The notes under the pieces are model-generated. The model did no database searches, was not told the origin of the DNA, and was given only the letters and a program-made list of their open reading frames with translations. Position numbers and translations under genes: made by a program. Positions 9,166 through 64,000 of a stretch of DNA of 64,000 nucleotides are shown here, one piece after another; the first letter of the stretch is position 1; each line of letters starts with the position of its first letter. Source of the stretch: Vicugna vicugna (Eukaryota); the NCBI GenBank assembly GCA_013265495.1, contig MU057484.1:1-64000 (forward strand), read 5' to 3'.

Positions 9166-9289
9166 CTGTCGAAGGTGAATGTAAACCGCATTCTGGAGAA
9201 ATTCGGGAGCTTCTAGGCTCCGCTTCTGGATGGCAAGGACACGGACAGCTTTTAAGCATGCTTCTAACTGAGTCACAGGCATTCTTACA
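9166..9289 (-). pseudogene. TRAPPC9: TRAPPC9 pseudogene exon 7
   Basis: ctgcag|TGTAAGAATGCC...CTTCGACAG|gtgagt. Encodes CKNA/(2-bp deletion)[37 protein letters not shown] versus recalled TRAPPC9 [42 protein letters not shown]. 124 nt versus 126 expected. Confidence 0.93.
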
Positions 9290-10433
9290 CTGCAGGGTGA
9301 AACGGAGGCTCTCAGTGAAGAGCAGAGATGTTCCTGTCGTGTCTCACAGGCCGTGCCTCGGGGACTCAGTGCCCTACAGCAGCCTGGCACCGGACGAGGA
9401 TCCTCAGTGTGGCCAAACCAAGCAGGAGGGGCACTGTGCTTGAGAAAGCCCATCCCCGATGGGGGCAAGAGGGGCTGGTGGGGTTGTGTGAACGTATAAA
9501 TGCTCACAGAAATACACCTGTATACATTCAAGTGATACAATCAACAGTAGCAGGGTATTTAACAAAATTTCAATTGTCAGTGGAAATTTTACCATTCCTT
9601 TCCGCTTGTCCCCTGCACTCTGAGACAGGCTTAGGCTCTCTCACACCTGCAGCTCTGATGCAATAGTTGTGAAGTCATTTTACTTTGCTGCACTTCTCTC
9701 CCCGTGTCGCTGTGACTGTCGTCTCTTAACACAGTCAGATGTCTTCCTGGATCTCTCCCTGAGTTCCTTGCTCCTGTTTCTCAGATCCTAAGATAAAGTG
9801 AAGACACAGGACCAGAAAAGACACTGTGGACTGACCAAAGTCCTCAGTGACCCCCTAGGTGAGTGCTGCCCACAACTTACCTTCAGTTCTCAAGTTTCTG
9901 CCCAGGGTGATATCCAGACTGGAGAGAGTCCTGAGCCAATTAAAAGCTGTGTGGTTTGGGTGCAGGGACAGGTGCAGGAGCTGGTTCCAGAGCCGGGCCC
10001 CTCCACACCTCTGCCCCTCTCTCTCCCGAGGCCCCGCTGCCAAGCCCCCAGGCTCTCTGATATTCTGCATTTCTCTTCCACTCTACTCCAAGGCCTTTTC
10101 CTCTTGCTTTATTCCCTAATTATCCCCAGGTGGAGTGATTTTTCATCACAGTATCTGAAAAAATTTCCTGCAGCTGAAAAAGAGGTCTCCAAAAGTCAAT
10201 GCCCATATGCTGGTTCCTGAAGACAGCCCCTGGTTAAGGGGACCCTCACCAACACTCATGGGGCATCAGACATGTTGCAGGGTCGACTACCCCAACAAGA
10301 GTTTGCTGTGACCCCCAAGGCACGCACAACATCCCTGCTCACAAAAATGTAGTTGGCCCACTTACTGTTACTAAGAAGCAAAAATTAAAAAATTGTTCAT
10401 GTTTCTTACTAAGATTATTTATGAGGTGGAAAT

Positions 10434-10970
10434 TGTAATAGAAAAGAACAAATTTGACTCCATGTTAGATGTGATGTGTTCCTTTTAAAACTGTGCCCAG
10501 TTTTCTAGGCTCAGACTTGCTATCTCTGCACCTTTTGTGAAAGAAAGTTGCCTTTAGCCTGAAATATCAAGGAGAGCCTATTCTCCGGGCTCTGATCTTT
10601 AAGGATGTTAGTTCTTCTGCACTTATGTAGAGATGGCAACTTGCAAAATAGAGAATAACCTTTGTTTTTCTGGAGGTTTTACAGGGGAACCATGATTTGA
10701 CCCACAAGGACAGCTGTAAGATGAAAGGATTCCAAGGACAAAAAATTCGTACAGCAAGAACTTTGAAACAACCAACCACACCCCAGCCCCTTTTTAGAAT
10801 AATAGGAGACTGAATTCTGATTGGGGAAGAGGGTCCTCCAGGATATCAGTATGCCATATTCTGGGTCTGTCAGCTTTTTAAATAAAGTCACTATTCCTTG
10901 CTCCAACACTTCATCTCCCAATTTATTGGCCTGTCATTCAGCAAGCAGAACGAGTTTGGACTTGGTAACA
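10434..10970 (+). mobile_element. ERV1-type solo LTR
   Basis: TGTAATAG...GGTAACA termini, AATAAA at ~10881, 4-bp TSD aaat (10430-10433/10971-10974). Related copies at 46578 and 47717. Confidence 0.85.
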
Positions 10971-13479
10971 AAATGACTGCATTGGAGGTAGTATGTCTCC
11001 TCTGTTTCCTCATTTCCATTATGTCACAACCTATCAATTTTATATGCTGTTTAACAACACAACCAAAATACCTATCACAGGGAATTGATTCCATGGAAAT
11101 AAAATTATTTCAACTCCTTCAAAACTTTTTCTTTTCTTTTCTATTTTATTTTGTTTTGCTTATTGAAAAGAAAATAAAACTCAAATCATTTTATTTCACG
11201 TATTTTTGTTATAGCTACATATTTTAAATACTACAAAGAGATTTAAATTGAATTGAAAAAATTGTTCATATATTACTATAAAGATATATACACAATCACT
11301 GCGGATTAGGAAAGGAATGGATATTTACTAAAAATCCACTGCACAACCAGTCTTTTACAAGCGTATCCTGGAATATAAGCTCTATGATCCAGGGGTCCCC
11401 AACCCCCATTCTCACTGCCGAGTCTCTTAGTAATCAACTTCCAAGGCACCAGCATAGAACCACGCAGTCAGAATTTTAGGTATAAATGAGTGAATTAGCT
11501 CATTCAATTCTAAAACAAAAAAACGTAAAATAAATACTGAACTTATTTACAAAGAAAATTGGACACAAAAAATGACAGTTTCTTCTCCAAGGTCACAAAG
11601 CTAATAACTGGTAAAGGCAAGATTTGAACTCATCTGCCTGATTCTAAAAACTAAGGTGGAAGTCCCATTCGACTGTGGAGGGTCCAGCAGCAGAGCCTAT
11701 CACCCCATCTTTGTTCAGATCTAGCCTTAGACAGCCTGAGACAGCACCCCATTCCTTCGGAACTCGAGGGCAAATGATAACAATAAGGATTTTATATCCA
11801 GTAGTTTCTTAGGTCTCATTTATATAAAGTGTCAGCAGGTCAGCAGAAAAACTGGGAAATATGAGTGGGTCCAGAGCTTTTTGCTGATTAGACACTCAGT
11901 CTATCAGGACAGAGTGACCTTCCCATGAGAGGCCACATGGACATAAACTAAAGGCAGCTGAGCAATGAAAATTAGCAAGACCCTGTAACCCAAGAAAGAA
12001 GGATCCCTGCCATCCCCCACCCAGTTGCCTCTTCACCCGTGTGGACACAATGGTAGAAGACCCAGGTTTTTGTCCAAGTTACTCTATCATGGATTCTCAC
12101 CCATAAAAAGTTACGACTCTATGCTGTCTTAAGTCCTTTCCAACTCAAATATGATGACACCAATTTCTCAGCAGAATGTCTATGTCTCCACGTACTGTCT
12201 TCAATTAGGAGAATATTTCTATGGCCACAAAGCAGAAATCCAATTAAAAACAACATGCATGAAGTCAGGTGAAAATCTGCATAAAAGACTTTGCTCTCAC
12301 GCTCAGTGAATGAAAACTCAGAAAAAGCGGTCTTTCTTCCTCAGCAAGTGGGAGGTAGCCTGATTGTGTGTGTGTGTGTGTGCACGCATGTGTGTGTGTA
12401 AATCAAATACAATGAATTCTGGGATGTGTACAGATTTTTTTTTAAGTTACTGTCATTTCATGAGGATGAGACAATTTTTAAAGAAATATGAATCTAGTGT
12501 TTTAAGAGAGTCTCAGGCTCTTTTGGTGGAGGAGGGAAAAGGTGAAAGGAAAGGAGGAAAGAAGTAAGTGAAGCAAAGGAGTAAGAATACTGCTTGGGAA
12601 AGTCAAGACATTAATTTTGTTCCTACTTACATCACACAAAAATTAGGGACTGGCTTTCCCCCATGTCTTGTCAAGCAGTGAGTTGCAGAAGAAGAGGTGA
12701 CAGCCCATTTCTCACTGAGCTTGTGACTGTACGTGGCATCTTATAGACACAAATCATTTACCCTGATCAAACACTCTAGCAGCAGGACGTAATTCTCCTA
12801 TTTTGAGAGACAAGAAAACAGGAGTTCAAAGAGGATATATAACTTGACAAAAGTCAGAGGACTAGTAAACAAGAGAGGATGAATTCAAACTCAAATCTGA
12901 ATGCAGAGTCTGATCTTCCCAATCCCAGGACTGGAAAAATCCTTAACACACAGGCTCCCCAGCTCCCCTGCAGTGTTCCTGGCACAAAGCATTTCCCATG
13001 GCGATGGCCTCCAGTTCTCACAGACGCAGTGCTCTGTGCAGCCAATTACCTCCATCGGACCTTGATCATCTACATGCCACTCCCACCAGGCTTCACCATA
13101 AAGGCAGGAAAGCTGGCTTTCAAGTGCATACAAAGACATCCCTTGTCTAACCTGGGCTCTTCTGTGGCTTCTCCAGCTGAAAAGCAGCCATGAAGCTGCT
13201 CACAGTTTGTACATGAGCCACACTACCTCTCTCCATCTTTCTCCCCACCTGTACTACTTAGCTATGACCATTTTGAGAATCTTGGAAACAAATTTTTAAA
13301 AACAGAAAAGAAAGGATTCAAGAACAAGTACTTAATACTTACAATTTTAAATGACAAGTTACAAAGTGAATATTTACAAACTGAATCTGCCATCCTAGGT
13401 GTCAGTTTAAACAGTTAAAAAATATAATACTAAAAAATTCTCACTCACAAAATTGAAAAATCATCAACAATAATAATTA

Positions 13480-15250
13480 ATTATTGCCCATGTTCTACAT
13501 GGGTAAACTACAGGACTCTACTGAGGGGTAAAGAAAGAGGTGTGAATGTAGAGACATCAACATATTGCATGGAGGAAAGCAGTTTTGTAAAGATGTAAGT
13601 TCTCCTAAAGATAATTCAAAACTTACTAAAAAATCTCATGAAAACTCTTATCTGTTTTTTTTTTTAACTTGAACAAAGTATTTTAGAATTCTTCAGGAAT
13701 AATAAAGTCATAACACTTGCCAAGAAAATTTGGGATGGAAGAAAAGAATAAAAAAAAATTCACACTGTCAGATATTAAATAAGTTTTCACAATATGTAAG
13801 ATATAGCACTGGAGAAAGAAAGTAAGATTGACAGAAAGGAACCATGAGTTCAAAAAGAGACTCTAGAGTACATAAGTACTTTGTACACGTGGGATTTGAA
13901 GTCAAAGATCAAAGTATGAATTCAATAATTGTCCTGGGACAATCAGAGAATCACCTGGAAAGAACAAATTCTATTCCTGTCATAGTGACCACAAGAAAAA
14001 TTACAGATAGTGATGTAAATTTCAGAAAGTACTAATAACAGCAAATACAACCCTTTGCTCATATTAATTCAACTTCTCCTCACTTTAACAAGTACTATTT
14101 TCATCTCCATCTCAGAGATTAAAATAACCTACAGAAGAGAATTATACCATTATAAGAAAATATTTCTAAGAATAATACCAAAAATTAAACCCAAAAAGAA
14201 GATATTTACTATCTTAAGAATATTTTGGGCCACAACAAAAATAAACCTACTGAACAAAATGAAAGGCAAGAAATGACAAGGAAAATCTCTGTGATATATG
14301 TTGATGAAGACAAGGGGTTGATTTTCATAACATACAAAGAGCTGTCACAAAGCAACAAGAAGCTCCCTCACTTAGATGTGTGCAAAGGTCAAAAGGGATC
14401 ATTCACTTTTAAAAAGTCAGATAGCTAATAAGTGAAAAATGCTCAATACCTCACTGGTCATCAACTGCAAACTAAAGCAATGTAAAAGCACTTTTGCTCA
14501 TCATGTTGGCAAATATTTTTAAAAGATATTCTAGCTAGTGTTCATCTGTGAGAGAACAAACTGTGAGTGACATTTGGAGGACGACATGTCAATGGATAGG
14601 TAAACTCTGAGAAACGTGTGAACACACAGACTCAACTCCACTTCTAGGAATCATTCCGTCTAGAAAAATATCAGTTCAATAAGATGAACTCATCAGGGCA
14701 TTTACACAGCACTGTTTACAATGGTGGGAAGAAAAGCTGAAGTGAAATCATATCCAGCGATAGAGAATTGGTTACATAACTTATTCTACATCTTTTCATT
14801 CCCCACTGGAGAAGGAATTTCTAGAGTCACTTGAAAGGAGCCTGTGATGAATGTAAATGTCACATCCAGGGACTAAATTTCCAGAAGCCTTAACTAAAAG
14901 AATACTCATACAAGATCACAGGAATGTTTGTACAAGAAGGATGTCAGTCAAACATCCTTTCTGACAGTGGAAAATGGAGAAATCTTAAGTGTCCACCATC
15001 AAGACAATGATGTGGTAAATCACGGCAAGCTTTGGGCCCTGAGGGAGCCAGCGATTCGGCATGGTCCAGGGCCTTGTCCACAGCATTCTCCCACCAAAGT
15101 TGTCCTTGCACAAGAGACCACACCTGCACATCAGGAGACCCCTCCACTCTATCTAAAAGGAACGGGTGAGTCTGTAGTGGGAAGACGTCTATGATATACC
15201 CGTGAGTGAATAAAGCGAGGGGCAGAAAACATATAGTATGGCCGTATTTT
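13480..15250 (+). mobile_element. Old L1 (L1M-type) ORF2 3' end/3'UTR fragments
   Basis: Degenerate L1 motifs (e.g. aaaatgctcaatacctcactggtcatc, actccacttctaggaatc, cagcactgtttacaat). Boundaries approximate. Confidence 0.55.
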
Positions 15251-15969
15251 TCAATAAAGCATATATGCACACACATATAAATATATTTCTCATATATGTG
15301 TATGTATGTACGTATGCATGTATGTATGTTTGTATATATATATGTCACATGCATAAACGTCGTGAAATATATACACCACATTGTCAACAGCTTTTAATCT
15401 CAGGAAATAAGGGGAATGGAGGTAGGGGGTTTTTGGTACAACCACAGTTCTCTGTTCAGTATTTCATTAAGTATACTTGGAATTTAAAAGTTTACTTAAG
15501 TACAAAGTAAAATGGACGATGCCTCCACAAGACAGAATGGTATACTGGTCATTAAAAATCATTCCAGGGGAGATAGAATATTGTAGAAAAATGTGTAATA
15601 AGCCAAATGGAAAATGGAGGTCTCCACACAGTAAACAGGCCCAGAGTGCTCGCTGGTTTTTGTGACAGAGGTGATACACACTGACGAAAAGAACAGAAAA
15701 AAGATGTTAACGTGTTAATTATTATCTCTGAGTAGTGGGACCAGGATAGCATGTTTTGTCCCTTTTTTTCAGACTTATTATATTCAGTACACATTATTTT
15801 CCACCTGAAAAAAACATTTTTAGATGTGTGGTACAGCACATTGGAGAAAATACACGAGTACTTACAGAAACAAATAACTAGGACACACCGCAGCAGCGTA
15901 AAACAATGTAGAACGGGTGATCCTGAATAACACCAAGCAGTTACATAAGGACCCACAAAATGAGAGCAC

Positions 15970-16090
15970 CTGCTGTAACAGTGTATGGCCCCCTTCTATT
16001 TGTCACTTGTGTTTTCAGGGCTGAGGCAGTACTGAGCACGGCCAGTGTCAGTGCTGGTGTCTGGATGGATGCCACTGGAGGTGAGGGCAT
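15970..16090 (-). pseudogene. TRAPPC9: TRAPPC9 pseudogene exon 6
   Basis: ttgcag|ATGCCCTCACC...TACAGCAG|gtgctc. Encodes [38 protein letters not shown] versus recalled [40 protein letters not shown]. In-frame TAG at 15996-15998; 121 nt versus 122. Confidence 0.92.
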
Positions 16091-16666
16091 CTGCAAGCCG
16101 AGAGGAAGAACAGAAATCATCATCTGCTTTTTCTGTGTTGTTTCTTTGTTACTTTGAAAGAGAGGCATAAATAAGATAAACTGTGTATCTTCCCTACTGA
16201 AATTACAGTAATGAAACCGTTTTTAAAGTCTTCACAGATTATATTCTGCCTAAAACTGTCTTCAACAAAGCATCATATATATTAAATGTTGATTAACTCA
16301 GTTAATAAACTCCCTGTTGAAAACTTCTATTAAAGAACATGAAATGCACTACGTAAAAGCACCACGCCTGCAGTGAATATCATAGCTGTCTTGACGGCAG
16401 TGCAGTCAGCACCCACCATCCCGTGGCCCTGAGCTCCTGATGCTGGTGAGAGAGCATGCTGCCGCCTCAGATGGAGAGAAACTGTGAAAGCATTCTCTGA
16501 AATCTACAGCACTGACAATACAAAACTGACAAATCCCAGGCTCCTTTGAGGCTGTCATTTTCTGTTTCTGGCCAACACCTGTAAATGAGCAGAACCACCC
16601 CATTTCTGAGCAATGGGACTCACGTGGGAAGCAGTTTTGGAGAAATTTCCAGATATAGAATGTAAC

Positions 16667-16708
16667 CAACTATACATAGAACTCTGACAACTATACATAG
16701 AACTCTGA
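16667..16708. repeat. Perfect 21-bp tandem duplication
   Basis: caactatacatagaactctga x2. Confidence 0.9.
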
Positions 16709-18544
16709 CAAAAGAAACGATGAAATACTCTGATTTTGGAAGACACCGAAAATATTCTCCTAAGCCTTAGTAGCTGGAAAGATCGGGCTTCTCCTAAGCC
16801 ACTTATTTATTTCACAGCCAGTGAGCATCTCCCACAAACCCTGTTTCCCTGTGTCTGCTGGGAGCCTCAGGCACACTCTTGCCGTCGATCTTATAAGTCA
16901 CAGGGCAGAGGTGTGTGTCTCACGCCCGCAAAACTCACACAGGCTCACCTCCTAGCCTCACTGTCTGAACTTGGCCCCATTTTCTCACCTGTTTATTTAG
17001 TATCTGTTCTTCTGTAATCTGCCTGAAGTGTTTCTTGGAACAAGTCAGAAGAATGAGTGGGTAGAGAAATGGATAAATGGACTGGTGAGAGATGGGCAGA
17101 CAGACACAGTGTCTCCAAGAAAAGGGGAACAAAGAAAATTTCCTATGCAAGACTCTCTTCTAGTCAGGGAAGAAAGCCATCACGGAGAATTGTGAAGAGA
17201 CAGGTAGCTTAGGACTGTTTCCTGGATTCCATGAAAAATAACACCAAGAGATGAGAGGGTAGAACTATAAATAATAAAAGAAAAAGCATGCATGCTTGAA
17301 AACTATATCTACAATATGTACTTTCTAAAGAATAGATTCAAATCAGCAGGGCCCAATAACACAATCCTTGGGTATTTACAGAATTGAGAATCACATCTCC
17401 AAACCACAAGGCATCACTTTCAAGCACTGAGAGTCTACAAGGTGCGGTCATAAAGCCGTCACCGCAAAAGCTATGCTATCCTGCACTTACGAGGAACGAG
17501 CAGCTGTGCTCTGGCTGCCCACGTGCGTCATTTACACCCCACAGCACCTCTACCGGGGGGACGCCTAGCGAGCCCCATCTTTGCAGGACAGAAAACAAGT
17601 CTGGGAGAGGCTAAGCCGACCTATCAGTTCTCCACCTCACAGGACTGGTCACTCCAGAGCAGGACTCGAACTCGGACCCACGTTTGTAACCTCAGTACTA
17701 CCGTGATTTATGTGATTTTTGTGTGTATAATACATTTGTTTCTGGCATGAAAGTATATTTAATAAATGTTCGGTTGTCTTGTCTATCTCATTAGCTCACA
17801 ATCAATCTTTATACTGTTGAATTGTACTCTTTTCCCCTGAACAAAGGAACGGAAAGAGCAGGGGTCAGAATGAAATGGGGCTCCATTCTTTATCTGGTAC
17901 CTCATCTCATCCAAGTCCCCAACCAGGGAGAAGAAGCAACTGTTCTCTTCATCACTTAAAGAGCGGGCTCCACTGATGGTGACTTAGCTCCAAAACCAAG
18001 GCTGGGGGAAGGGCACATGCAGCAACCAGGGCAGTATCACCTGTAGGAAGGCGAAAACAGCTCACTGGAAGGCTCGGGGAGTGAGCCTGATTTAATTTCA
18101 ATCGATAAAAGAATACCACAGTCTATAAATACTAGCATGCAATTAATTTGCTCTTTCTTGACGTCTAGCAATTTTCCACAGCCCACATGTAACATTATCA
18201 TGAACCAGTGAAAGGAAGACTCTACACACAGGGAAAATCAACGCCACAGGCAGGCTGAAATCCAGGCTGGAGGAAAGGATGAGAAAGGGCATAGTTAAGA
18301 AGAGGGGAAAGGCTGGGAAAAAGACATCATCACAAGGACTCTGAAGCATCATCCAACAATCATATAATCATTTATTCAAGAGAGAGTTACTGAGGTCCTA
18401 TTTTGTGCAAGACTTTACAGAGAGCAAAGCAAGTGCGCAGCATCCATTGTGGCAGCAAGTGGCGGGGCTCAAATGCACTTCTGATCCCGGTACCTTGCAC
18501 ACTTTTCCTCAGTATAAAGGCAAAGAAAATAAAGTAAAATAATA

Positions 18545-18840
18545 CTCTGTAAATTCAACGCATTGTTGAAAAAAATTAAAGAAGACCTAAATACCTGCAC
18601 AGACACACAATGCAGATGCCTGGATCAGAAGCCAGTGCTCTTGGAATGGCAGTGCTCCCCAGAGCGATCAGTATATTTAACGTGGTCTCGTTCACAATCC
18701 CAGCGGGCTCCTCTGCAGAAACTGACTAGCTGCTGCTACAATTCATATGGGAACTCGAGGTTCTCAATAACCAAAATGCACTTGAAAAAAAAGAACAAGA
18801 TGAGAGGACTTGTAATTCTCAATTTCAAACATTACAACTG
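18545..18840 (+). mobile_element. L1 ORF2 fragment
   Basis: Degenerate translation LKKIKEDLN..., and aaaagaacaagatgagaggacttgtaattctcaatttcaaacattac is typical of L1 ORF2. Confidence 0.7.
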
Positions 18841-20404
18841 TATCTACAAGTGAGATTAGAGGCCATTTTTAAGGTATTATTGTGTTTATCCTTATTTTCT
18901 AAATTCTGTACAACGAATATACCTGTTAGAATAAGAAAAATAATTGGGAAAAAATATTTTAACTATAAAGAGGTAAACAAATATCTAGTGAAAAATGACT
19001 ACTTAAAATCAAGAGTGCATTTACATTTTTCATAAATTGAAAACTGAAAAGCACAAACACAAGTTTCTAGGGAGACCGATGCAACATAATAATAGTTATT
19101 TTCAAAATTCTAATTGAACAGTGAAAACTCAAGAAAGGGAAAATCGTGATTGACAGCCAACTGCAAACACATGGAGAGCAAAGGCTTAGAAATCACTGTT
19201 CCTTTAACTCTGCTACTAACTCAATTGGAGAGGAAATTCCTCACTGAGGGGACAGTGGAATCCCATGCATAACACAGGATACACAGTACAAACTGCACTA
19301 GATACGTGGGTGAGTTTCTTAGAAGAATTCTAAAGTTACAACATTGCTGTAAAAGTATAAAAACACTGACAGACAGATTAAAACAGAAAGTCATATATAT
19401 TATATAGAAACATATGAAGTCTTCTCCCATGTTTCATAGAAATATAAACATATTTGTTCCTTTATGGGCACTGGTTACTTTATCCCAGATAGAATATTTC
19501 AACTAAAAAAAATTAATAATACACTCCTCTTGTCAAATATAGTTGATAAGTTACTCTGCTATGTAACCGTAATGTGTCTAAGATAGATCTAAAATTAGTG
19601 AAAAAGATCTTTGTATGGTTTCTTGAACTGTTCTCAAAATTCCAAGCTTAATTTTAAAATAGATCTGAGCAGTATTTCTATATTATCTTTTCCCTTGTGA
19701 AATGAACAACACAGTCTGTTGTCAAAATTCTGTCCTTAAAATGATTCACGAGCACCATATCCTAACTGCTGGACAATAAGGCACAATAGGAAAACTATGA
19801 CCAAATAAATGAAACATAAGGAAGACAGTGACCCTATTCTGGAGGGATTAAATTCTGTGTCATCACTGGGGTTTTTATTTGATTGGTTTGATTGGATAGC
19901 AAATTAAAATCAATCAAGTACATTCTTCTTTGAGCATTCTATATGTCATGACTCTGTTTTTAGTGTCATGAGCAGGAAAGACTTAAGCATGACTTGATTA
20001 CGTCAACTAGCAACAATCATCACTGGAGAGTGACTAATAAAGTAGTTAACTGATAGCAATGCTTCTGCCTACATGAGACGTAAAATAAACCTACACTGAT
20101 CTCTGCAAGGAAAATGAGGAGATGAGGTCCTCAATGAGAAAAAAACTAACAAGATATCAAAAAAGGAAAGACTTTTTCATTAACGATTCCAGGAAAGAGT
20201 GGAGCATGGTGGTGAAGAGCACACATGCTAGGGACAAACATGAGGGTCTGAACTCCCACAGCACTGGGTACCTGTGACACTGATATGTCAGTCAAATTCT
20301 CTGCATCTCAGTCTCCGATCCATAGACTGGGGACAACAACAGCACCCGTCTCCTAGAACAGTCCTAAGAATTCAGTTATTTTATATATAAAAGTTTAAAT
20401 AAAA

Positions 20405-21450
20405 TACCTCAGATTTTAAATACTAACCCAAAAGCACAAGGAACAAACAAAAGAGAGATAAATTGGAATTCATCAAAATTTAAAACTTTGCTTCAAATGA
20501 TACCATTCAGAAAGTGAAAAAACAACACACAGGAGAAAATTTTTTCAAATCATTTATCTGATTAGGAATTTGTATCTCCAAATAAAAAAAAAACTCCTAC
20601 AAATCAACAATAAAAATGCAACTCAATTAAAAAGTGAATAAAGTATCTGAAAAGGTATTTTTCAAGGAAAATATACAAATAGCCAATAAGCACAGTGAAA
20701 CGATGTTCAATATCATTAGCTGTAAGGGAAATCAAGTCAAAACCACTAGGAGAAACCGCTTCACACTCACTGCAATAGGTTATAATCAAAAAAAGAGTAA
20801 CAAGCACTAATGAGGACACAGAGGAAGTGGAGCTCGCAGCCCTTGCTGGTGAGGACGTAACAGTGTGGCCACTTTGGAAAACAGACTGGCAGGGCCTTAG
20901 AGGGTTGAACATTTGGTTTCTGAATGATCTAGCAATTTTGCTCTCTGGGTACACACGTAAGATAACTGAAAACAAATGTCCACATAAAAAATCCTACAGG
21001 AATGTTCACGGCCCCATTACTCATCACAGCCAAAAAGCAGAAACAACACAAATGCCTATCACCTGATGAATGGGTAAACAGTGGGGCCCAGCCATACAGT
21101 GGAATATTATTCATCAATAGCAAAACATAGAGTACTGACCCAGGTCATAACGTGAACAATCATTGAAAACGTTAGTGTGAAAGAAGTCAGTCAAAATAGA
21201 CGGTTCAATTTACATGAAATGATTCGACTTACATGAAATGTCCAGCACAGGCAAATCCACAGAGAGAGAAGAGTGGCTCCTTGGGGCTGGGGGAGGATGG
21301 GGAAGATGGGAATGACTGCTTATGCATACGGGGCTTCCTGTTGGAAGTATGAAAATGTTCTAAGATTGACTGGGATGCACAATTCTGGCATAGAGTAAAT
21401 ACCGCTGTACATTTTAATGGGTGAATTGTATTAAAACTGTTAAGAACAAA
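20405..21450 (+). mobile_element. L1 (L1MB/MC-like) ORF2 end and 3'UTR
   Basis: Canonical L1 3' motifs: aaattggaattcatcaaaatttaaaac, gccaataagcac, atgttcaatatcattag, cacctgatgaatgggtaaac. Confidence 0.85.
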
Positions 21451-22230
21451 AGCAACTCGGGCCAGTACCTTCCCATAGTAAATTCAAATTGCTAACTTTT
21501 ATTACAGGAAGAAGAAACTGCCCTCAACATGAAAGCAGAAGATCAGCAAATGTTAGTTAACCGAAGTTGGACAAGAGCATTTCACTTGAAACAGTTGCTC
21601 AGTGTACATGAATTATTTAAAAATAGGAAAATCTGCTTGACAGCACAAAGAAGCATTCTGCTTCAAATGCAGATCAAGGATTTGGCATGACCAGCTGCTA
21701 AAAATGACCAGAGAAGAAACCTTGTTCTTAAAACAAGCACCAGAGCCAACAAGGAATTGGTGGTGAGGAAAGCAGGCGTGCGAAAATCTGGAACAGTTTG
21801 CTACAAATAATTACTCCACTGAAAATTCAAAAATAAAATGAAAGTGATGCAATGCTGTGTTGACCTCACGTGAATGGGCTTCCTTCGGTGCTCCACAGTT
21901 CTGTAACCCCGAATGAGAGACTTAAGAGAATCAGCATGGCCCCTGGGAGTCCCCAAGTTACTGCCCACCAGCACGCTGACCACCATCACATCTGCCAGGG
22001 TTGAATTGCAGAGAAGAGACCAACTTCTGAAAGGCACAGGAAATGTTGACAAGGGAAGAAAAGGCTGTGGTCTGTCCTGGGACAGAGGCCCTGTGAGCAG
22101 AGGCCAGAATGCTGTATGTGAACTGGAGTGGCCCTGGGGCAGGAAGGGACCACGGGGGAGCAGATTTCAATTCTCTTCTCTCTCTCCCTCGGGTAGGAGA
22201 GATAAATCCTGCTTCCTTCTCACCTGGAAC

Positions 22231-32139: not shown

Positions 32140-32260
32140 CTCCAAGCCACAGAAAATCATTCACTGACCGGAGCAGCTCCAGGACATAACGGTGATGGAT
32201 CAGGGAGTCCTGCAGCATCCCAGCCTGAAGATACAAACCTCACATGTGCCCTGGTGATGT
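32140..32260 (-). pseudogene. TRAPPC9: TRAPPC9 pseudogene exon 3
   Basis: Encodes [35 protein letters not shown]|gtaagg versus recalled [36 protein letters not shown]. In-frame TGA, ~25-bp 5' deletion (121 versus 146 nt), acceptor appears as ctgg instead of ctag. Confidence 0.92.
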
Positions 32261-33443: not shown

Positions 33444-33474
33444 ACACACACACAAACACACACACACACACACA
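33444..33474. repeat. (CA)n microsatellite
   Basis: acacacacacaaacacacacacacacacaca. Confidence 0.9.
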
Positions 33475-36400: not shown

Positions 36401-39400
36401 CTGGAATTCGATTCCTGGCAGGTATCTCCCAGGCTTCCCAATTTAGTAACAGCCCCAGCACACATCTAGGTGTTTGAGGTCACAACCCCTGTTCCCTCCC
36501 CCCAGCCCTGCCCTGGAATCAGTCCTGTTATTTCTGTCGCTAAGCGCATCTCAAGTCTCGTTCTGTAGGGACCATGGCCTGAACCCCACAAGCTCACAGC
36601 AAAATGCAGTGAGTCACAGTCCTCCGAAGGGTTCTTCTGGAGGGGGAGGCATCTCCTGCTGCTGGTCACCTCAGAAGGCACTGGATTCTCACACAGAAGT
36701 CCCAGGAGTAGGGACTCAAGATTCGTCCGTGGTCTGAGCTTTGAATGACCCGTGGTCTGGGGGAGCTCCTAATTAGCAGACTCACCTGCCAGTGAGCAGA
36801 AGAGGATGGAGGAACCCAGGCAAGGCTGTTCTCACTCCGACCCCTTGGCTTTCAGGAGCCACGGGAAAGGCCTGTGTCCAGGGCACAGACCAGACATCAC
36901 AGATCCAGCCTGCATTTGCCAACCCAGACAGCCTAGACTCCTACTTGTGACTCTTACTTCTGTTCTGTTCCCCCCCCAGAATGTGATGGATTCTTTCAGA
37001 AGTTCTGGCCTGTCTCAAGCGAGACCAAGTCAGTAAAAAACACAGTGTCGACATTTGTGCCAGAGTATGAAAGGAGAAACAAGGCCTCATGGTCAGCATG
37101 ATTGTGGTGGCCTAATCCTTCCCCCGGGTGAGATGAACCAGGGTAGGGGTAAGACTGTAAGGTCATAGGTCAGCCAAAGCATATTCCTTCACAGCTGACT
37201 GGGGTGTTGGGGTCTCACTATCGAAAACTAACGACACGGCCGTCAGTGGTGGACGTCAGCTGCAACAGACACAGAATCAGCTATTTACTGCCAACATGGG
37301 TTTAAATTAAAGGCCGGGGCAGGGAGGCCAGCACGGCTGCTGAGGCAAACCACAGACCCGGCTCTGAATGCCCACTGGCTGAAGCAGAGTGGAACCTACA
37401 GTCCCCTTTAGCGGCCCATTTGTCCACCAGATCCAGGTGAGCCAGCCTCTTCGGAGAAGGCCATGTTGTCCTGATACTTAGAAAAACCAGCCTCATACAG
37501 GGAACAAAAGAATGGCATGGATTTTAGACCCAATACTGCCCCTTTATGAAGGCAAAGTAAAGTAAATGGCAAGGGGAAGTTGAATAAAAAAAAAAGTGAC
37601 TGCTTCCTCCAACAGCGTCCCCTGCAGCTGCTCACCCCCGAGCCGGCCACTTCCTCACCAGTGACCGCCGGCCAGGAAGCGCCGTCAAGCACGTCACACA
37701 GCGACAGCCAGGAACCGCGTGCCGAGCACTTATGTGTAAAAGCAGAAATCGAGCAAGGTGCTGCAGATTTGACTTTGCAAGTTTAAATACTCCATGAAAA
37801 TAATCCCTCAACAGCCTCCTAAATCAATTCGCATCTCACTTCTTCAAAACAAACAAACAAATTTAATAAGGGCACATTTGTCACCAAATATAAGGAGGAC
37901 CAAACAGGTTCCTCAAAGCAAAGATTTTAACAGTTATCAAACACCAGTGGGTGATGTGTTAACAAAGAAAATATTCCAGAAAATTAGAAAATAAAAAGAT
38001 GACTAGGATAATACATGGATCAAGGCAGCTGTTAAGTTTTTGCTTTTTAAAGTGATGGAGGCAGCAAGGAGGGAGATCTAGCTATTTCCAATGCAGGGTG
38101 GGCACAGCCCACCTTTTCAGACACAACAACATGCTCAAAGGGCAGTACAAGAGGAAAAAGTAAGAAAGAAAAAGGAAAAGAGGAACAAGCCAAAATTAAA
38201 AACGCACAAGAACAAAAATGACTTTGACAGCATGCACAAGAACTTACGTGAGTGTGATGAGGACAGGGACGTGGGGACGGTGAGACCCACCCTCACCTCC
38301 TGCTCCAGGGAAGGCAGTGGCCTGAGTGGGGTAGTGCTGCATGGAGACACCAAAGTGGTCAGAGCCCCAAACCAAAACTCCACCTACATGGATCTAGATA
38401 GCTTTTGGGCTACAAAATGTGGTCGCATTTCAGGCTGGACCGTTTTACTCACTCCCAACAAGAGTAGCAGGAGAGAATTTGGCTCTGCTCCTGCACCAAA
38501 GCATTATTTTATAAATTAATGGCTGTGAAATAGTAAAAGGAACAATGGAGTAAAAGTGACTGGAGAAGAACGTGCTTGACCCGAGCTCACTGGCCGCGTT
38601 ATCTCACTGACATTCAGATGCTGGCTGGGAGCTTACTGTACTAAAACAGACAGACCCACCAGGAGGGAGGTTTAATGAGCTGCTGTATTTTGATGCCAAG
38701 AGCCATGCCTGGTATACGAGGTTCTGGGTAAACAATGGTGACAGTGTCAACCACTATGGGCTAAACACACATCCAGCTACTCCACCAAATCACAAGGACA
38801 GACTTCAAAAGGCAAAAACATGTTGGCATTCTCAGGTGGGTCTACAGACTCAGAGCCAAGCAGTTGCTGAGCAAAAATGTCACCAGTTCCTCCTATGACA
38901 AAAGAGGAAGCACTGGTCAGGGGGCTGGGGCATGCCTCCAGGCTTCCACTGCTCACATACCAGTCTGTCCAGGGGGAGAAGTTGGTCCCTGCTTACGTTG
39001 CAACGATGCATCTACCTTAACTAACAGCTGGGGGCTCAGCAGGAGGTGACAGGTGAGGTGAACGGAGCCAGTCTGGGAGAATCCCGGTGCTGGCAGCTGT
39101 GCCTTCAGCAGTGCCCAGGCTCCTAAACCTGCCACCTCATCTCCAAGTAGCAGAAGGGGAGTGTGGACATGTAGATCATAGGGCCGTGTGAGGACAAGTA
39201 CGATCATGGCCACGGCATGACTTGCCTCTTCCTTAAGCCATAGATGAATGTCCGGGGAGGAACTGAAAATTCATCCGGAGTTCGCCAGGAATCACATGCA
39301 GGTGGGACTCGGGTCCCCTGTGTCTCTCACTCACAGGGCTTGTCTGGCCTTTCTTTTTATCAATTCTCTGGCATCTTTTCCTCCAAATGACCAACAAACA

Positions 39401-40573
39401 GAAAGTAGGATCTGATCTTAGGTAAGTTCAAGAATCACAGATCACCGCCTCCACAGCAGACCCAGCTGCACGTGCTAGGTCCTCCGACCATCACCTGTGG
39501 GACCTCCATGAGCGCTCTCCAGACTCAAGGCCCAAGGCCGTAGGCCGGGGGGACACAACTTCCCTCACTCTCCTCAGCAAAGGGGGACCATCTCTCGGCA
39601 AAGGCTTCTCAACCTCTTCTGCCCAAGGGAAAGCACGATAGATACAAGGGGAAACAGAGCATAAGGTGGGGGTAGGCAGCCCAGAAGAGCTTGTCTGCAC
39701 TTCCAAGGCAAAGTGAGGCCTTTGACCTAATCACAGGGACAAAGTGAGGATGAACCTTTCCCTGCTCTGTCCCATACTCTGTGACACGCCATTCCCTGTG
39801 TATGGAGTTCATTCAGAAGTCCCTGGTGGTGTTTCTAATATCCTAACCTGGCATGGTGGCTGTTGGGCATGAAGAGAGGGCCTGAGCCTTGCAGGTGCTG
39901 GGCCTAGGAGTCAGGAAACACCGGCTCCACCCCCAGATCAACCAGTGCCTCGTTCTGCGTCTCGGGATTCAGCATCTCATCTATGAGCAAAGGGATGAGA
40001 CTGTCTCAGGACAGGCTGCCCAACAGAAATGTAATGAGATCCATGTAAAGAAAGTTTCCCAGTTGCCACATTTAAAAAGTAAACAAAGAAACAAACAAAC
40101 AAACAACAAATACTCGAAACTGATTTTAAGAACAGATCATACTTATTCTACTGTATGTAAAATACTATCATTTTGACATGTAAGCAATATAGAAAGTAAC
40201 AAGATAGATTACATTCCTTTTACTGGTTAAATCTCAGCGTCTGATGTGCATTTGACCTACAGCACATGCCAGCTCAGACCAGCCTCCTCCCCAGCGCTCC
40301 TAGCATCAGTGGCTGTGGCTACTCTATTGGAGAGCAACTCCACGGGTCCCACCAGGGGTCCTGACTGAAAAGCGGGAGGAGGTGTCCACACTAACCATAA
40401 AAGGATCTCTCTGAAACAAAGGCAGATTCACTTTTAAATGTCTGTAAACTGGCGGTCTGCACCTCCCTCCTCCCTTGGCTATAAGACAATCCTCTTCCTT
40501 GCTGATCCCTTTCTGGATGTAGGGAAGCAATCCGGCATTCAGCCAGGGCGGCTGGGCCTCCTGGTAGAATTAC

Positions 40574-41143
40574 CTGCTGTCTCTGTCCAGTCCCATGAAG
40601 TCCTCCTTCTCAAACAAGGTGCAGATGAGGGGGATCTTGTCCCCAGACTTTTTGGGGGCCCTATCCAGCCACCTGGACTTGAGAAAGATGAAAAGTGACT
40701 CAGTGAAGTCCTCGATCCTCTTCTCCATCAGCCTGCAGTCCTGGTAGATTAAAGGCCACGTCAGTGCGCGGCTGCTCGGCTAACTCTCCATGCAGCACAA
40801 AGAGCTGAGAGTCATTAAGCGAGGTGCCATACAGCTCCTCTGCACGTGGAGCTTCTCGAAGGCCGTGGCTGAGAGGCAGTTGGTAATGGTGACAAGGCCC
40901 ACGACCTTGCCTTGGTGGGTCTGGAAGTTTCTCCACCTGATCTCGGGTGCATAGTGGTGCCTGTAGTGGATGCAGAGTGCCCGACGGGAGTCGCATGGGC
41001 TGATCTGACTCACCAAGGAGATTTGCTTATAGATGCAAAAGAAATTCTTTTCTGAGATGATCCCAACGGCTTGGACCACCACGGGAAGAATCTGGTCATT
41101 CTCAACGCACTGCATGTAGTCAGGGATGCCCATGTTGCAGGCC
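40574..41143 (-). pseudogene. TRAPPC9: TRAPPC9 pseudogene exon 2 (first coding exon, ATG at 41133)
   Basis: Polypyrimidine tract + cag|ggcctgcaac[35 protein letters not shown]...[26 protein letters not shown], then [29 protein letters not shown] and [52 protein letters not shown]|gtaatt in shifting frames, versus TRAPPC9 MSVPDYMQCAEDHQ...DFVGLDTDSR. Two frameshifts (-1, -5) plus in-frame indels; 570 nt versus 594. Confidence 0.96.
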
Positions 41144-41576
41144 CTGCCGAGAGGGGAGAGGAGATCGAGATACATACTCTGCTGTGGGCTGTGGGTCCCT
41201 CTGGGTTGCTGTGACCTGATGTGTACCAGCCAGTAGGCAAGGGAAGCCCAAGCAAAGCCGGGGGGTACAGTTTGTCCTCAGTGTCTGCACATGGCTACCG
41301 TAGGTCGGATCACATTACCCAGCTTTTGGTTTAGGCTTCCAGCCCCTGCAGAGAAGTGTCATTTCTTGTTTTCTGTTTCCAAGCACCTAGCCAGATCCTT
41401 ATGCAAAGTCACTGCTCAAAACTGCTGAATAAAGGAATGAACAAAGGAACTGCTTTCCACATCCCTTTAAGGAGAATATAAAGAAAACAACCACAGTGGG
41501 ATTAAAACATCTGGATTTCAACTCCAATTTATTTGAACTCCTAAGCAGCAGAATAATGGATAAGAAAACTTGCCTT

Positions 41577-41785
41577 GGGGAGGAGGGTACAGTTCAGTGG
41601 TGGACCACGTGCTTAGCACGTACGAGGTCCTGGGTTCAATCCCCAGTACCTCATTTTAAAAAATGAAACAAATAAACAAACCTAATTACCCTCCTCAAAA
41701 AATATTTTTTAATTCAAAATTCAAAAAACACCTTGCAATAGACACAACATTGTAAACTTGACTTTACTTCAATTAAAAAAAAAAT
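41577..41785 (+). mobile_element. Vic-1-like tRNA SINE followed by a short L1 3' tail
   Basis: ggggaggagggtacagttcagtggtggaccacgtgcttagcacgtacgaggtcctgggttcaatccccagtacctc (B box ggttcaatcc), then gacacaacattgtaaacttgactttacttcaattaaaaaa. Confidence 0.85.
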
Positions 41786-43924
41786 CCTTGCCTCACAAGA
41801 ATATATCTGGATTACGGAAGTTTGCAAATGTAAAATGCCTAGGGTACCACCTGCATAAAAAGAGGGGACTGTACAAATTTGCTATCCCTCCTTTATGAGC
41901 TATATTACCTTAGGGGGCTTATAACCTCTCAGAGCTAATTTTCTCAGATTAAAAAAAAGAAAACATTACCTGATTCTCAGTACTGCTGAAGAATCAGATA
42001 ACACTATGAAAGCATATGATACACGGAGGTTACTCAATAAATGTTTGTTGAATGAACGAATAAACAAGCAAAGTGAATGCTGCTCCCTGCCACAGAACAT
42101 GAAAATGGTACTGCCTGGAAATCCCAAGCCCATGATCACCGGACTCTACACTAACCATGTGGGTGAACTGTGCAGGCCTGTGTGCTTGTCTAAGCCCCAG
42201 TTTAATCATGAATAGAAATGAGGGCAATAACACAAACCTCAAAGGGTTAGTGAGTCAGTAATGAATTGCACCCGAACTTTGCAAGATTGAACCATTAAGG
42301 AAAATTGGGCAGAGTCCATAGGCCCTCTCCATATTATCTCTTACAACTACATAGGAATCTACATTACATCACAAAATTAAAAGTCTAAATTTTTAAAGAG
42401 GCTATTGAGGTTAAATGAGCTCACTGTCTCAAATAAGGAACACACAGTACAAATAGGACAATCCCTAGACCATGAGATACACTCAGTTAAATTTCCAACT
42501 GAACCCACTGGTCCCTCCAACTTCAGAGCACGAGGATGGGTCCTCGTGGCCAGAGGACACTGCACCTGAAGCTAACAAAGCTAACGGTCCCCACTTCCAA
42601 TAGCCCCTGTCACCATCCTAGGTCTAAGTTTGTATTTGTAATTTTTTTCCTTTTTATTAAATAGAAACCCCCAATTGCATAGCCTTCAGGTCACCAAAAC
42701 CTGACCACAGAGATCATGATGGCAGCCCTTCTTGGTGAAACAATAAAATGAAAAGCCATTTCCACAAGACCTCTGTGTAAATCTACTAGGGAAATTCATC
42801 CTGGACTGAGGGGAAGAGGACTGGGGAGGAGGGAGAAATCTGGGGCACAGAGAACCATGGGCCACCTGTCCCACGATGGAGTTTAGTTTCAACACTCACC
42901 CTCCAGGAACTTCAAAATACACACAGACAGAGTGCCTGGACAAGATTTTTTTTTTTTTTAAAGAAATCGCTGACTACCTAGCAGCTCTTTTTTCTATCGA
43001 GACACAAATGGATTATGTATAATGTTTCACAAAACCCCTAAAATACTATCACCCCAACTTGACGCATGAAGAAACTGAGGGAGAGAGGTTTATCACATTG
43101 TGCAAGATTAGAGTGAGGCCGCGTCAGACACCGTATTTAAACCCAATCCCTTGCTCCATTGTTCACACTAGAAAGTGTGACATACTGCCCCTTTTCTGCC
43201 CTCTCTCTTCAATAAATCTCTGAATAGTCTTTTCTGTGCCACCTGGCATCACAGTCACATCAGTTTTCCACAAATAGCTATGTCACTCCTTGGAGGACGT
43301 ATCAAAATTTAAAGGGTTGGAATGGGAGGAGAGATTTGCATTTTCTGTTTCTCAAAGGAATCATGGCTTTAAAAGAAACTGAAAAGGACTTATCTAGTCT
43401 ATGGTCTCATTGTGCAGAGAAGAAAACCGAGGCTCAGAAGAGATGAGGAAAGGGACTTATTAATAGATATTGCCTCAGCGAAGCACCAAACCATCCCTGG
43501 GCACTTCTCGGGGATGATCTGGGAGTCCCAGGAGAATGAATGTTAGAAAAAGGAAAGAGAAGAGGCATACAAGGCCGTGTCTCTACATCATCATACTATG
43601 GAATTCCACCAAATTACCCAGTATGGTTCAGTCAACATTAAGGTGGGTAGAGAGGTTATAGAAACCTGGAAGTCTCATCCATAGTGGAAATTCCAACATT
43701 TACTATGCTTTTTTCCCAGTTCAAGCTTCAGCTCAGTGGGTGCTCTGTACCAGGGACTACACGATGCCTGGAGTTCTCCCAAATACAGATCTCTATTGCC
43801 ACGTGTGCAAACCACACACAGGCCCACCAGAAGAAAAACGTCCACAAATAAAATGTAATTACTGAGACTGAAAGCAGCCAAACAGCATATATTACTAGGA
43901 AAAACGGTGCTGCTAGAAATGCAC

Positions 43925-44170
43925 TCATGGACATAGAAACAAACTGTTTAGCAGGCAGAAAAAGGGGTATTAACAGATACATATTAATAAATATAAAATA
44001 AATGACAAGGACCTGCTATATAGCACAGGGAATATATTCAATTTATTGTAATGAGTTGTACTAAAAACTATCTAAAATGTATGTATATACATATGCATAT
44101 GTTTATAACTGAATCTCTGCTGTACACCTGAAACTAACATTACAAGTTAATTACACTTCAATAAGAAATA
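43925..44170 (+). mobile_element. L1 3' end (cetartiodactyl-type)
   Basis: acaaggacctgctatatagcacagggaatatattcaat...gctgtacacctgaaactaacattac...cacttcaataa. Confidence 0.8.
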
Positions 44171-45319
44171 ATTAGAAATATAAAACCAAGTCATTAAAAA
44201 TGTAAAAGAACACTAATCCTTGTAGCTGTAGGTGGTGGACAATTCTGGGTGAAAGCAGCAATTCCACTGGATCACTCCAGCACTGACTGTCACCCTTTCT
44301 GACCATCAGAGTGTCACTTGGCTACACTGAGGTTACTTTTCTCTTATGTGAAAGGCTACATTTGGAATTAACAATGTATAGAATCTCATAATTCAGAAGC
44401 CCAACAATTAGTGAGGACTTTCCATGGGCCAGGCTCTGGACAGATGAGAAGATAGGGTCTCAGATATATTCATGGGTAGAAGAAGTTTATGCCATAAAGA
44501 CATTAATTCTTCCTGTTTTGATAGACAGAGTCAATGCAATTCTGATTAGAATTCCTACCAGATTTTTCATGGAATGTAACAAGTTAATTTATGGTCAGGA
44601 ACAGCCAAGAAACTTCTTTAGAACCACCACTGGGGAGGGGTGGATAGGTCATTCATTACCACTGTTATTTCTGAAGTGATGAAAACGTTCTGGAATAATC
44701 ATTGTTGCACCACTGTGAATATGCTAAAAGCTGCTGAATTGTACCATTTAAATGGATGGACTTCATGGTGTGTGAACAATATCACAATAAAACTGTTATA
44801 TGAAAAAATATTTCTTGACCATTATATTCCACTGTATACAACTAGTCTGCCGCACAATTTAAGAAAAACAAAAAACCAAAACAAACCAAACTGTGCCAGG
44901 AGCTCTTTAGGACTGCAATGTCCCTGGGTCTCCAATGCCTCTGGTGGTACTGTTCCTGTAGACACACACTAACTGGGTTGGACTGGTTAGGGAATGTAAC
45001 TATCTTTCTAAAATCGACGGTCATATGTTTCACCCTGGGAGAGGGAAGACTGGAGGATGTCACAGACTCGTGTCTTCAGCTCATTTTTAACTGAATCAAG
45101 CCCTGCTTTCAACACTGTAATCCCTCGCACTATAAAAACACGTGACATCATCAAGCACCACCATCATAACACCTGAAAGTGTTCAAGGAACTTACCTGGG
45201 GCAGAAACACTGAGGGAGGAGACGGAAGCTCCCTTAGCACTGGTGCTCCCTTTTCCAGACTCCACCAGGAGAAGCTGGGCTTTACAGCCTAGTGCCCACG
45301 CCACTAAACTCGTCCTGAG

Positions 45320-45910
45320 GGAGCGGGAAAGTGAGAGGAGGGCAGCCCCGGGGTCACGGGGCAGGGAAAGCGGGGGCTGGGGACGCGGGCTGCAGCCAAG
45401 CTAAGATACCAGCCCCAGGCCCAGCTGCTCGCTCCCGTCTGGGTCGGCAGACACCGCCCGCCCGGGACACAGCCCGCCCAGGGACAGGCAGGGGTAGGCA
45501 GCCTAGGAGAGGAAGCCCGGGAGGAGAGGACTCGCGGGCGGGAGAGGGGAAGGGGACGCCAGCCGAGGACTGAGGGGAGCCCGACTGGGGCGAGAGGAGG
45601 CAGATGCACACTTGGACCTGGACAGTTGTGGCCGGGGCAGATGTCTCGGGCAGAGGGGCCTGGCCAGAGCAATTCAGCTGAACACACACCCTCGCGGGCT
45701 GTGACACGCGGACCGCCCTCCCGCAGCCGCCTGACCCCTTTCCCGGGAGCCCCCAGTCTTGCACTTCCAGTGCCGGAGTCCCCGGACCCGGGCAGGAGCC
45801 AAAGGCCTACCGGGCGACAGAACTGAGAAGCCTTTGGGGCCTTTCCCTGTCTCAGAGCTGGAGCTTCCAATCCCCAGTCCAGCTGGCACCGATTGCGCAT
45901 GCTCCGGAGG
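45320..45910 (-). promoter_or_regulatory. TRAPPC9: Partly CpG-decayed CpG island; duplicated TRAPPC9 promoter/non-coding exon 1 region
   Basis: High GC and CpG content ~4.5 kb upstream of exon 2. Candidate donor ggg|gtcagg at 45735/45736, NRF1-like TGCGCATGCTC at 45894-45904, and ETS-like cacttccagt (decayed cacttccggt) at 45762-45771. Confidence 0.7.
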
Positions 45911-46138
45911 GCCAGCCATCCTCTGGGTTCTGAGAGAAGCTGGGGAAGTGAGGGAGGGAGAAGATGGGAAGAGTTGGGTAGGAGGGGAAAAGTGGAGGGA
46001 GACAGATGGACAGGAGGTGCAGAGAGAAGGGAGTGATCTGGAGGGGGGAGGGGAGTAGCAGAGATGGAGAGAAAAAGCTTTACCTCTGGGGGCACCCTGA
46101 AACAGGCGGCAGTCCTGCCTCTGTACCCTTCTCTAACC

Positions 46139-46170
46139 CTTCAAGGCCCGCAGCTCAAATTTTACCTCCC
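46139..46170 (-). pseudogene. TRAPPC9: Homologue of the 3' end of the upstream alternative first exon of the long human TRAPPC9 isoform
   Basis: Minus strand GAGGTAAAATTTGAGCTGCGGGCCTTGAAG = EVKFELRALK, matching the recalled N-terminal extension ...TEEVKFELRALKDWDFKMSVPDY. Confidence 0.65.
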
Positions 46171-49056: not shown

Positions 49057-49070
49057 GTTGTTGCTGCTGC

Positions 49071-49111
<41 letters not shown>
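49057..49111. repeat. (GTT)n/(GCT)n microsatellite
   Basis: Directly visible. Confidence 0.9.
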
Positions 49112-63997: not shown

Positions 63998-64000
63998 TGT

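Follow-up and report, generated by a model that had tools for sequence, protein, structure and literature searches.

The 64,000-nucleotide stretch of Vicugna vicugna DNA described here (hereafter the window; positions 1 to 64,000 of contig MU057484.1, contig C258 in our numbering) is very probably a full member of an old amplicon, or segmental-duplication, family of the camelid lineage that was seeded by the 5′ end of TRAPPC9. TRAPPC9, also called NIBP, is a TRAPPII-specific subunit and the homologue of yeast Trs120. A promoter relic and four of the first five coding exons of this gene, together with their introns, are homologous and collinear with TRAPPC9 on the minus strand of the window, and an intact TRAPPC9 lies elsewhere in the same genome, on contig C4144. 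A first-pass annotation, made from the letters of the window alone, had described a lone duplicate of a single-copy gene, an expectation overturned by 110 loci of the first coding exon on 91 contigs and by 133 matches to the last exon relic. Its extent of 9166-46170 (~37 kb) also fell short, as homology continues past both ends and the amplified unit is larger and has flanks that do not derive from TRAPPC9.

The parental locus and its relic in the window

All exons were mapped by tblastn with the full-length bear TRAPPC9 (P0057, 1147 amino acids) as reference protein, and “exon 2” refers throughout to the first coding exon (residues 1-195). A six-frame search of the assembly (2.03 Gb, 12405 contigs) identified the intact gene on C4144, where the first coding exon occupies positions 1328481-1329065 and is 95% identical to bear TRAPPC9, and where, in the 200 kb around the locus, the exons for residues 1-867 occur in order with no stop in the printed matches. 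With the parental exon 2 as query, C4144 was the only 100% match among 84 matches at E≤1e-30, and the runner-up reached 66%. The outcome that the first-pass annotation had itself named as fatal, a genome with no second intact TRAPPC9 locus, thus does not occur.

By blastn, the window is collinear with C4144:1321385-1369136, introns included, through 13 segments of at least 200 bp that are 67-83% identical (Table 1), which bears out the first-pass picture of TRAPPC9 exons lying in order on the minus strand with kilobase-scale introns. The tblastn matches to the bear protein on that strand cover residues 1-202 at 41133-40552, residues 208-244 at 32248-32138, residues from 297 onwards at 16088, and residues 342-380 at 9276-9166; residues 244-296 and all those after 380 found no tblastn match in the window even at E=10. 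Five exons (2, 3, 5, 6 and 7) had been proposed and four were found, the exon for residues 244-295 having been taken out of this copy by a 3.1-kb deletion; the “exon 7” said to end at 9166 is the same exon as the fourth relic under a different number. The relics lie 6-16 kb apart with homologous introns between them, and around exon 2 the window differs from the parent at about 20% of nucleotides, in introns as well as in the exon.

All four coding-exon relics are disabled, in agreement with the stops and frameshifts reported in the first pass. The stop-free frame at 40780-41277 on the minus strand opens with a recognisable TRAPPC9 N-terminus, and the start codon is kept (ATG at 41133-41131), but in the relic as a whole a 1-nt deletion after the HVQ codons shifts the frame, a TAG follows in the shifted stretch, and changes of −1 and −4 then restore the frame. 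This relic is 55% identical to the bear protein (tblastn, gapped) and 61% identical to the translation of the parental exon 2. In the relic for residues 195-243, deletions of 13, 10 and 2 nt together with +1 and −1 indels add up to a net loss of 25 nt. Splice dinucleotides are kept at seven of the eight exon boundaries, as “GT-AG sites at nearly all boundaries” had implied. Compared with the 1147-residue reference, the window has the region for residues 1-378, with one exon deleted and the others broken, and its relics are restricted to residues 1-243 and 296-378, each with frameshifts or stops. With damage in each of the four exon relics, an acceptor site gone and a promoter island in decay, the window's copy, judged from its sequence, cannot make TRAPPC9 or any long TRAPPC9-like protein, and it is predicted to be unable to serve as a TRAPPII subunit.

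It is extremely improbable that the window is the true TRAPPC9, misassembled here or lost in this species. The retained ATG and seven of eight splice dinucleotides would suit such a gene, but the complete open exon set of a functional orthologue (about 1140 amino acids) is not present in the window, the intron difference of ~20% is far past sequencing error, and exons after residue 450 are missing from all copies. Nor is the window the unique syntenic TRAPPC9 locus: its flanks have no match to the parental flanks. Given these unlike flanks and the intact TRAPPC9 on C4144, the window is not the TRAPPC9 gene itself.

A processed retrocopy of TRAPPC9 mRNA is out of the question. Such a copy would be intronless, with mRNA-like exon joins, whereas here introns, promoter and upstream sequence were copied along, collinear with the parent over 42 kb, and nothing speaks in favour of a retrocopy. 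Since the introns were copied, the duplicate arose at the DNA level, as the first-pass annotation had held; with disabling mutations here and an intact parent on C4144, its structure is that of an unprocessed, DNA-level TRAPPC9 pseudogene copy.

The CpG island reported upstream of the exons is present as a GC-rich relic at 45250-46394, in an eroded state, with 40 CpG compared with 92 in the 984 bp of the parental island. Only 26 of the 77 aligned parental island CpGs survive, and 24 have changed to TG or CA. This retention is close to that of exon 2 (15 of 50) and intron 2 (17 of 67), from which it follows that the island decayed like methylated DNA.

Copy number, unit structure and family history

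Copies were counted by using stop-free translations of pieces of the unit as six-frame probes. The exon-2 piece found 135 matches in the genome (156 candidates, 150 of them scored), which merge at distances under 3 kb into the 110 loci on 91 contigs, window and parent included; the exon at 9166-9289, probed with the stop-free frame 9082-9540, found 133. Open frames of 1162, 622, 628 and 455 amino acids beside exon-2 matches, which at first look intronless, were rejected as runs of N in scaffolds. The family copies differ from the window by 7-25%, and they are therefore not assembly redundancy. The window is more similar to its nearest fellow copies (91-93% identity) than to the parent (about 76-80%); these are L002, at 91.4% over 2.1 kb, and C5866, at 93% over 7.8 kb.

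The view that the window holds a single old ~37-kb unprocessed duplicate of an otherwise single-copy TRAPPC9 is very improbable in the light of these counts. It is right that the copy is unprocessed and old (about 20% from the parent) and that an intact parent is present, and C258 has only this one exon-2 match, with no further unit in the next 20 kb to the right. Against it stand the 110 exon-2 loci and the 133 matches for the last exon relic, flanks that were co-amplified, and nearest relatives that are other copies of the family.

The layout of the unit recurs from copy to copy. The distance from exon 2 to the exon at 9166-9289 is ~32 kb in the window and in C4354, C5866, C7135 and C6718, and 32-33 kb in C5805. 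More than one exon-2 locus was found on 16 contigs, with the same strand in 17 of 19 neighbour pairs and spacings of 48-74 kb in nine of the 19 and 33-37 kb in three. Two exon-2 copies on C6615, at 714743-715195 and 734746-735198, score identically and are separated by exactly 20,003 bp; the pair reflects either very recent duplication or an error of scaffolding.

The amplified unit spans the whole window. Upstream of the TRAPPC9 block, at least 16 kb of flank are not derived from TRAPPC9, and window positions 48300-56148 are 93% identical to C5866:37869-45664. Three probes from this flank (53702-54142, 59410-59796 and 63242-63838) found 66, 41 and 53 matches, respectively, and in both subfamilies described below they precede exon 2 in an invariant order. 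The three probes also occur in their usual order at C5723:350129-360109, where exon 2, the 9166-9289 exon and the exon for residues 379-450 have no match; this locus is a candidate source of the non-TRAPPC9 flank, or a truncated copy. On the other side, a probe from window positions 222-509 found 127 matches and follows the last exon relic at a distance of ~9 kb in C5866, C4155, C4354, C7135, C6718 and others, and it also matches scattered places on large contigs in the manner of an interspersed repeat. The AT-rich block around it is probably an old interspersed-repeat insertion common to the family. On C4155 the full order is as in the window (1406706, 1410343, 1416002, exon 2 at 1428484, then 1465175, 1474287 and 1489122) over 82 kb.

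Past the end of the window's homology, the exon for residues 379-450, not present in the window, has 55 matches including the parent and lies 17-25 kb beyond the previous exon. The exons for residues 449-498 and 541-595 have one match each, the parent, and are thus single copy; exons beyond residue 450 are missing from every family copy. Since the 379-450 exon was amplified and the later exons are single copy, the parental part of the founder would end between them, in the interval C4144:1379832-1383886, which makes it about 58-62 kb long. On the tandem contigs C7135 and C5805 the last exon occurs only after the final unit, as would be expected if a ~60-kb sub-segment had been duplicated in tandem within a longer founder. 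At the edge of the window itself, the stretch C11076:63775-64062 matches window 222-509 at 100% identity, and a relic of the 379-450 exon lies at C11076:49261-49497; we infer that the ends of C11076 and C258 overlap and that the window's copy continues on C11076.

Relatives in protein databases all come from Camelus or Vicugna (5 of 5 and 41 of 41, 46 in total, from Camelus ferus, C. bactrianus, C. dromedarius and Vicugna pacos) and are named “TRAPPC9-like” or “uncharacterized”; in other camelids the family models are spread over at least 20 contigs of different chromosome-scale sizes.

The history of the family was read from a base-by-base comparison of ~2 kb around exon 2 in the window, 18 other copies and the parent. 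Among the 19 rows compared with the window (18 copies and the parent), 17 are 75-89.7% identical to it. The 1-nt deletion after HVQ is common to all 19 copies, as is the loss of one codon, and this suggests that they descend from one founder that was already frameshifted. A maximum-likelihood tree of the 19 copies and the parent gave two clades with 100/100 support each, one with L012, L013, L015, L019-L021 and L023, the other with the window, L002-L008, L016-L018 and L022. Terminal branches measure 0.026-0.084 and the branch of the parent 0.10, and the copies are nearly equidistant from the parent (proportion of differing sites, p, 0.166-0.198 in the exon and 0.177-0.219 in introns). The exon for residues 244-295 was found in only seven copies plus the parent, so that its loss is old and common to most of the family.

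Dates are rough. If a neutral rate of about 2.2e-9 substitutions per site and year is assumed for mammals, the parent-copy intron difference (p=0.199, Jukes-Cantor 0.23) would put the age of the founder at roughly 50 million years, and the tree path of 0.094 from the window to its nearest copy suggests that the window's last duplication took place about 20 million years ago. The residues V81 (16 of 19 copies) and L87 (12 of 19, with seven gaps) are shared with the camelid parent, and pig, whale and deer have I and F; V81 occurs in a bat too and L87 in a pika too. This sharing modestly supports an origin of the family after camelids split from other artiodactyls. A further attempt at dating found no exon-2 residue of the camelid parent that was absent from all 10 other mammals compared. 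Members named in both camelid tribes fit an expansion that largely predates the tribe split.

Taken from this anatomy, the sequence of events may have been as follows. A segment of about 58-62 kb, from the promoter CpG island through the 379-450 exon, would have been copied as genomic DNA to another site, where it was joined to unrelated sequence. The founder would then have gained the 1-nt deletion in its first coding exon, and the composite would have multiplied, partly as head-to-tail ~60-kb units, presumably by unequal crossing-over, and would also have spread to many sites. In such arrays only the last unit would retain the final exon. The result, ~110 copies in two deep subfamilies, is what is observed.

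Several smaller features accompany the unit. The 1.5-kb intron-1 block that the parent lacks contains a tRNA-like (short interspersed nuclear element type) element at 41583-41653 on the plus strand (Rfam tRNA, 38.7 bits), probably a tRNA-derived short interspersed element inserted before the amplification; it was the sole match of the Rfam search. The flanks contain 37 open reading frames of at least 80 amino acids with no Pfam family among them, and the upstream flank yielded no Pfam, Atlas or Rfam identity. A GC-rich block at 61935-63781 (GC 0.59-0.70), co-amplified with the rest, has diverged internal direct repeats of 0.8-1 kb that are 65-67% identical; its open frame of 199 amino acids had no Pfam relative, and its best Atlas score (0.79) was below lead level. 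An interspersed repeat of ~540 bp occurs three times (10434-10973, 46577-47053 and 47717-48246; 67-73% identical, the middle one inverted), and the third begins 2 bp past the upstream end of parental homology at 47715. Within the old flank, window 60834-61085 is a young local tandem duplication, with a 132-bp unit present 1.9 times at 99% identity.

Table 1. Features of the TRAPPC9-derived copy and its flanks in the window (all on the minus strand; nt, nucleotides)
Feature	Position	Strand	Remarks
AT-rich block	1..5859	-	GC 0.29-0.39; 3′ of last exon relic; no blastn match to the parental 200 kb
Collinear TRAPPC9 block	5860..47715	-	Begins 2.5 kb upstream of the promoter island and extends 3.2 kb into the intron that follows the exon for residues 338-378
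Relic, exon for residues 338-378	9289-9166	-	124 vs 126 nt in parent; AG/GT kept; 2-nt deletion shifts frame
Relic, exon for residues 296-337	16090-15970	-	121 vs 122 nt; AG/GT kept; TAT>TAG in frame, −1
3.1-kb deletion junction	31249..31257	-	Parental C4144:1338341-1341403 gone; blastn segments break here
Relic, exon for residues 195-243	32260-32140	-	121 vs 146 nt; acceptor AG>GG, donor GT kept
Relic, first coding exon (residues 1-195)	41143-40574	-	570 vs 594 nt in parent; AG/GT kept
Intron-1 block, 1.5 kb	41258..42765	-	Missing in parent (blastn gap); other copies align through
Promoter CpG island relic	45250..46394 (about)	-	GC 0.55-0.69; CpG observed/expected 0.19-0.62 vs 0.60-0.94 in parent
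Upstream flank	47716..64000	-	Co-amplified; blastn against the 61 kb preceding the parental island found nothing

Rates of change and possible activity of the copies

Rates of change in exon 2 were compared with those in introns across nine independent copy pairs, with the ratio of nonsynonymous to synonymous change (dN/dS) calculated by NG86. Purifying selection, the reading suggested by dN/dS values of 0.43-0.48, was rejected after controls for frame, CpG and base class. The ratio is 0.44 also in nucleotides 310-432, for which the copies use another frame. With CpG columns removed, the exon differs at p=0.071 and the introns at p=0.068, and rates at G/C sites are 0.090, 0.091 and 0.102 at codon positions 1-3 compared with 0.093 in introns. 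The low ratio is attributed to third positions rich in G/C (112 of 129 non-CpG third positions), an inherited base composition. Exon 2 thus appears to evolve as fast as the introns and looks neutral as far as tested, and in this exon of the 19 copies there was no sign of positive selection or coding constraint.

These rates bear on whether the family could be a working, transcribed one that resembles the core duplicons of primates. Its copies would then use the duplicated TRAPPC9 promoter to produce non-coding RNAs or short proteins like the N-terminus of TRAPPC9, possibly in germ-line cells, and the one in the window would be dead or active as RNA only. We consider this unlikely, in spite of several observations that agree with it. 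Stops are absent from 38 of the 135 exon-2 matches, counting partial matches and the window's own, and in subfamily B later deletions restore the frame after the founder frameshift. Predicted NCBI models have their start in the exon-1/promoter relic, from where they join exons of the family by splicing; P0001 (410 amino acids), P0002 and P0127 map to window 45757-46180, exon 2, 15972-16088 and 9160-9558 at no more than 84% identity. Raw dN/dS lies below 1. On the other side, once CpG sites are masked the exon changes at the intron rate, codon-position rates match introns within base classes, and the ratio is low also where copies read another frame. The island loses CpG about as fast as exon 2 and intron 2 do, and each exon of the window's copy is interrupted by stops or frameshifts. 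Unlike true TRAPPC9, the family has no protein from the transcript-rich Logan source among its 46 database relatives. RNA sequencing runs contain 0.07-0.13 of the sampled words of window 36501-46500, shares that speak neither for nor against transcription. As for the gene models themselves, they are predictions; all match the window at 84% identity or lower, so that none of them is the window's copy. In the Vicugna models P0003, P0004 and P0143-P0145 the 296-337 exon (15942-16103) is joined to the following exon 2 (40819-41148), which means that they run from one tandem unit into the next.

Membership of the window in an old, decayed amplicon family has to be weighed against a number of points that go the other way. 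The raw NG86 dN/dS is 0.43-0.48 in the parental frame compared with 0.67-1.41 in other frames, and it is still 0.39 after removal of CpG columns compared with 1.2 in other frames; A/T sites at codon positions 1 and 2 also change more slowly than intronic A/T (60 of 1590 vs 264 of 5405). NCBI holds “TRAPPC9-like” gene models for many members in four camelid species, and transcription of some copies is possible. Nothing similar to the window or to TRAPPC9 was seen in C258:64001-84000, so the window's copy is not in a tight array and is either solitary or the end member of a cluster. The continuation on C11076 is drawn from two search rows, and the ~2 kb compared base by base represent 19 of about 109 copies.

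Comparison with known systems and significance

Primate core duplicons, such as NPIP/morpheus, LRRC37 and NBPF, have an expressed gene family in their core that is under positive selection. The TRAPPC9 copies resemble them as a promoter-bearing gene segment present at ~100 copies in mosaic units, both in tandem and dispersed, and the TRAPPC9 block and the non-TRAPPC9 flank are common to both subfamilies. They differ in the positive selection, for which the test was neutral after controls, and in being much older. Segmental duplications are usually defined by a length of at least 1 kb and an identity of at least 90%; with a unit of at least 58 kb in the window the family is amply long enough, and its copies, 75-93% identical, mostly lie under the usual 90% cut-off. 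Ampliconic families of the sex chromosomes consist of near-identical copies (>99%) on X or Y that are expressed in testis; such identity is not seen here, where copies differ by 7-25%, and the models in other camelids are spread over at least 20 contigs, as described above.

A camelid comparison is offered by the pseudogene-rich repetitive blocks of alpaca, described for NEK10-like sequences on chr17, ATF5 and FMN2-like sequences on chr11, and uS3m, ACTB and ABHD17A-like sequences on chr36, in which gene fragments are interleaved with discontinuous satellite DNA and which are reported to be absent or reduced in camels (PMC13751797). To judge from the part of that paper drawn on here, the two cases are alike as multi-copy, fragmented, gene-derived camelid sequence, the blocks being attributed to localized duplication. 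They are unlike in that TRAPPC9 is not among the genes named in that part, that TRAPPC9-like models exist in three Camelus species as well as in Vicugna, and that the copy number of the TRAPPC9 family is several times higher. No satellite DNA was found in the window, where the 132-bp unit is the only tandem repeat. The literature searched, which did not extend to the papers' supplements, contains no description of an amplified TRAPPC9 family in camelids.

The locus is a relic of a large old camelid amplification, not a lone duplicate or a working gene. About 110 units of 60-85 kb would amount to several megabases, or about 0.3% of the 2-Gb genome, which to our knowledge places the family among the larger gene-derived amplifications outside primates. 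It is improbable, though worth stating, that the TRAPPC9 5′ unit is a camelid “core duplicon”, the promoter-bearing seed of an early-camelid burst of large duplications that left ~110 promoter relics over many chromosomes, with some copies still transcribed. If it were, spliced non-coding RNAs, chimeric transcripts across tandem units (as several gene models suggest) or short N-terminal proteins would be expected. Such products could act in regulation or in the germ line, and heterochromatic or recombination-prone parts of camelid chromosomes could be shaped by the arrays.

The main effects of the window's copy are structural, as a substrate for non-allelic recombination and as a trap for assembly, read mapping and annotation; copies of this kind also confound copy-number calls. 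Public camelid annotations already hold dozens of fragments named “TRAPPC9” or “TRAPPC9-like”. In human, POFUT2 and SUPT20H are not known to be neighbours of TRAPPC9. Two dromedary association studies give “TRAPPC9” as a candidate gene at chr14:31.08-31.37 Mb (PMC10357240, PMC8027435), beside POFUT2 and near SUPT20H, DDX27 and CSE1L (PMC10357240). This mixed neighbourhood does not resemble the human TRAPPC9 region, so what these studies call TRAPPC9 may be a member of the family instead of the true gene. For the study of evolution, the family represents a dated natural experiment in the amplification and subsequent decay of a large promoter-bearing segment.

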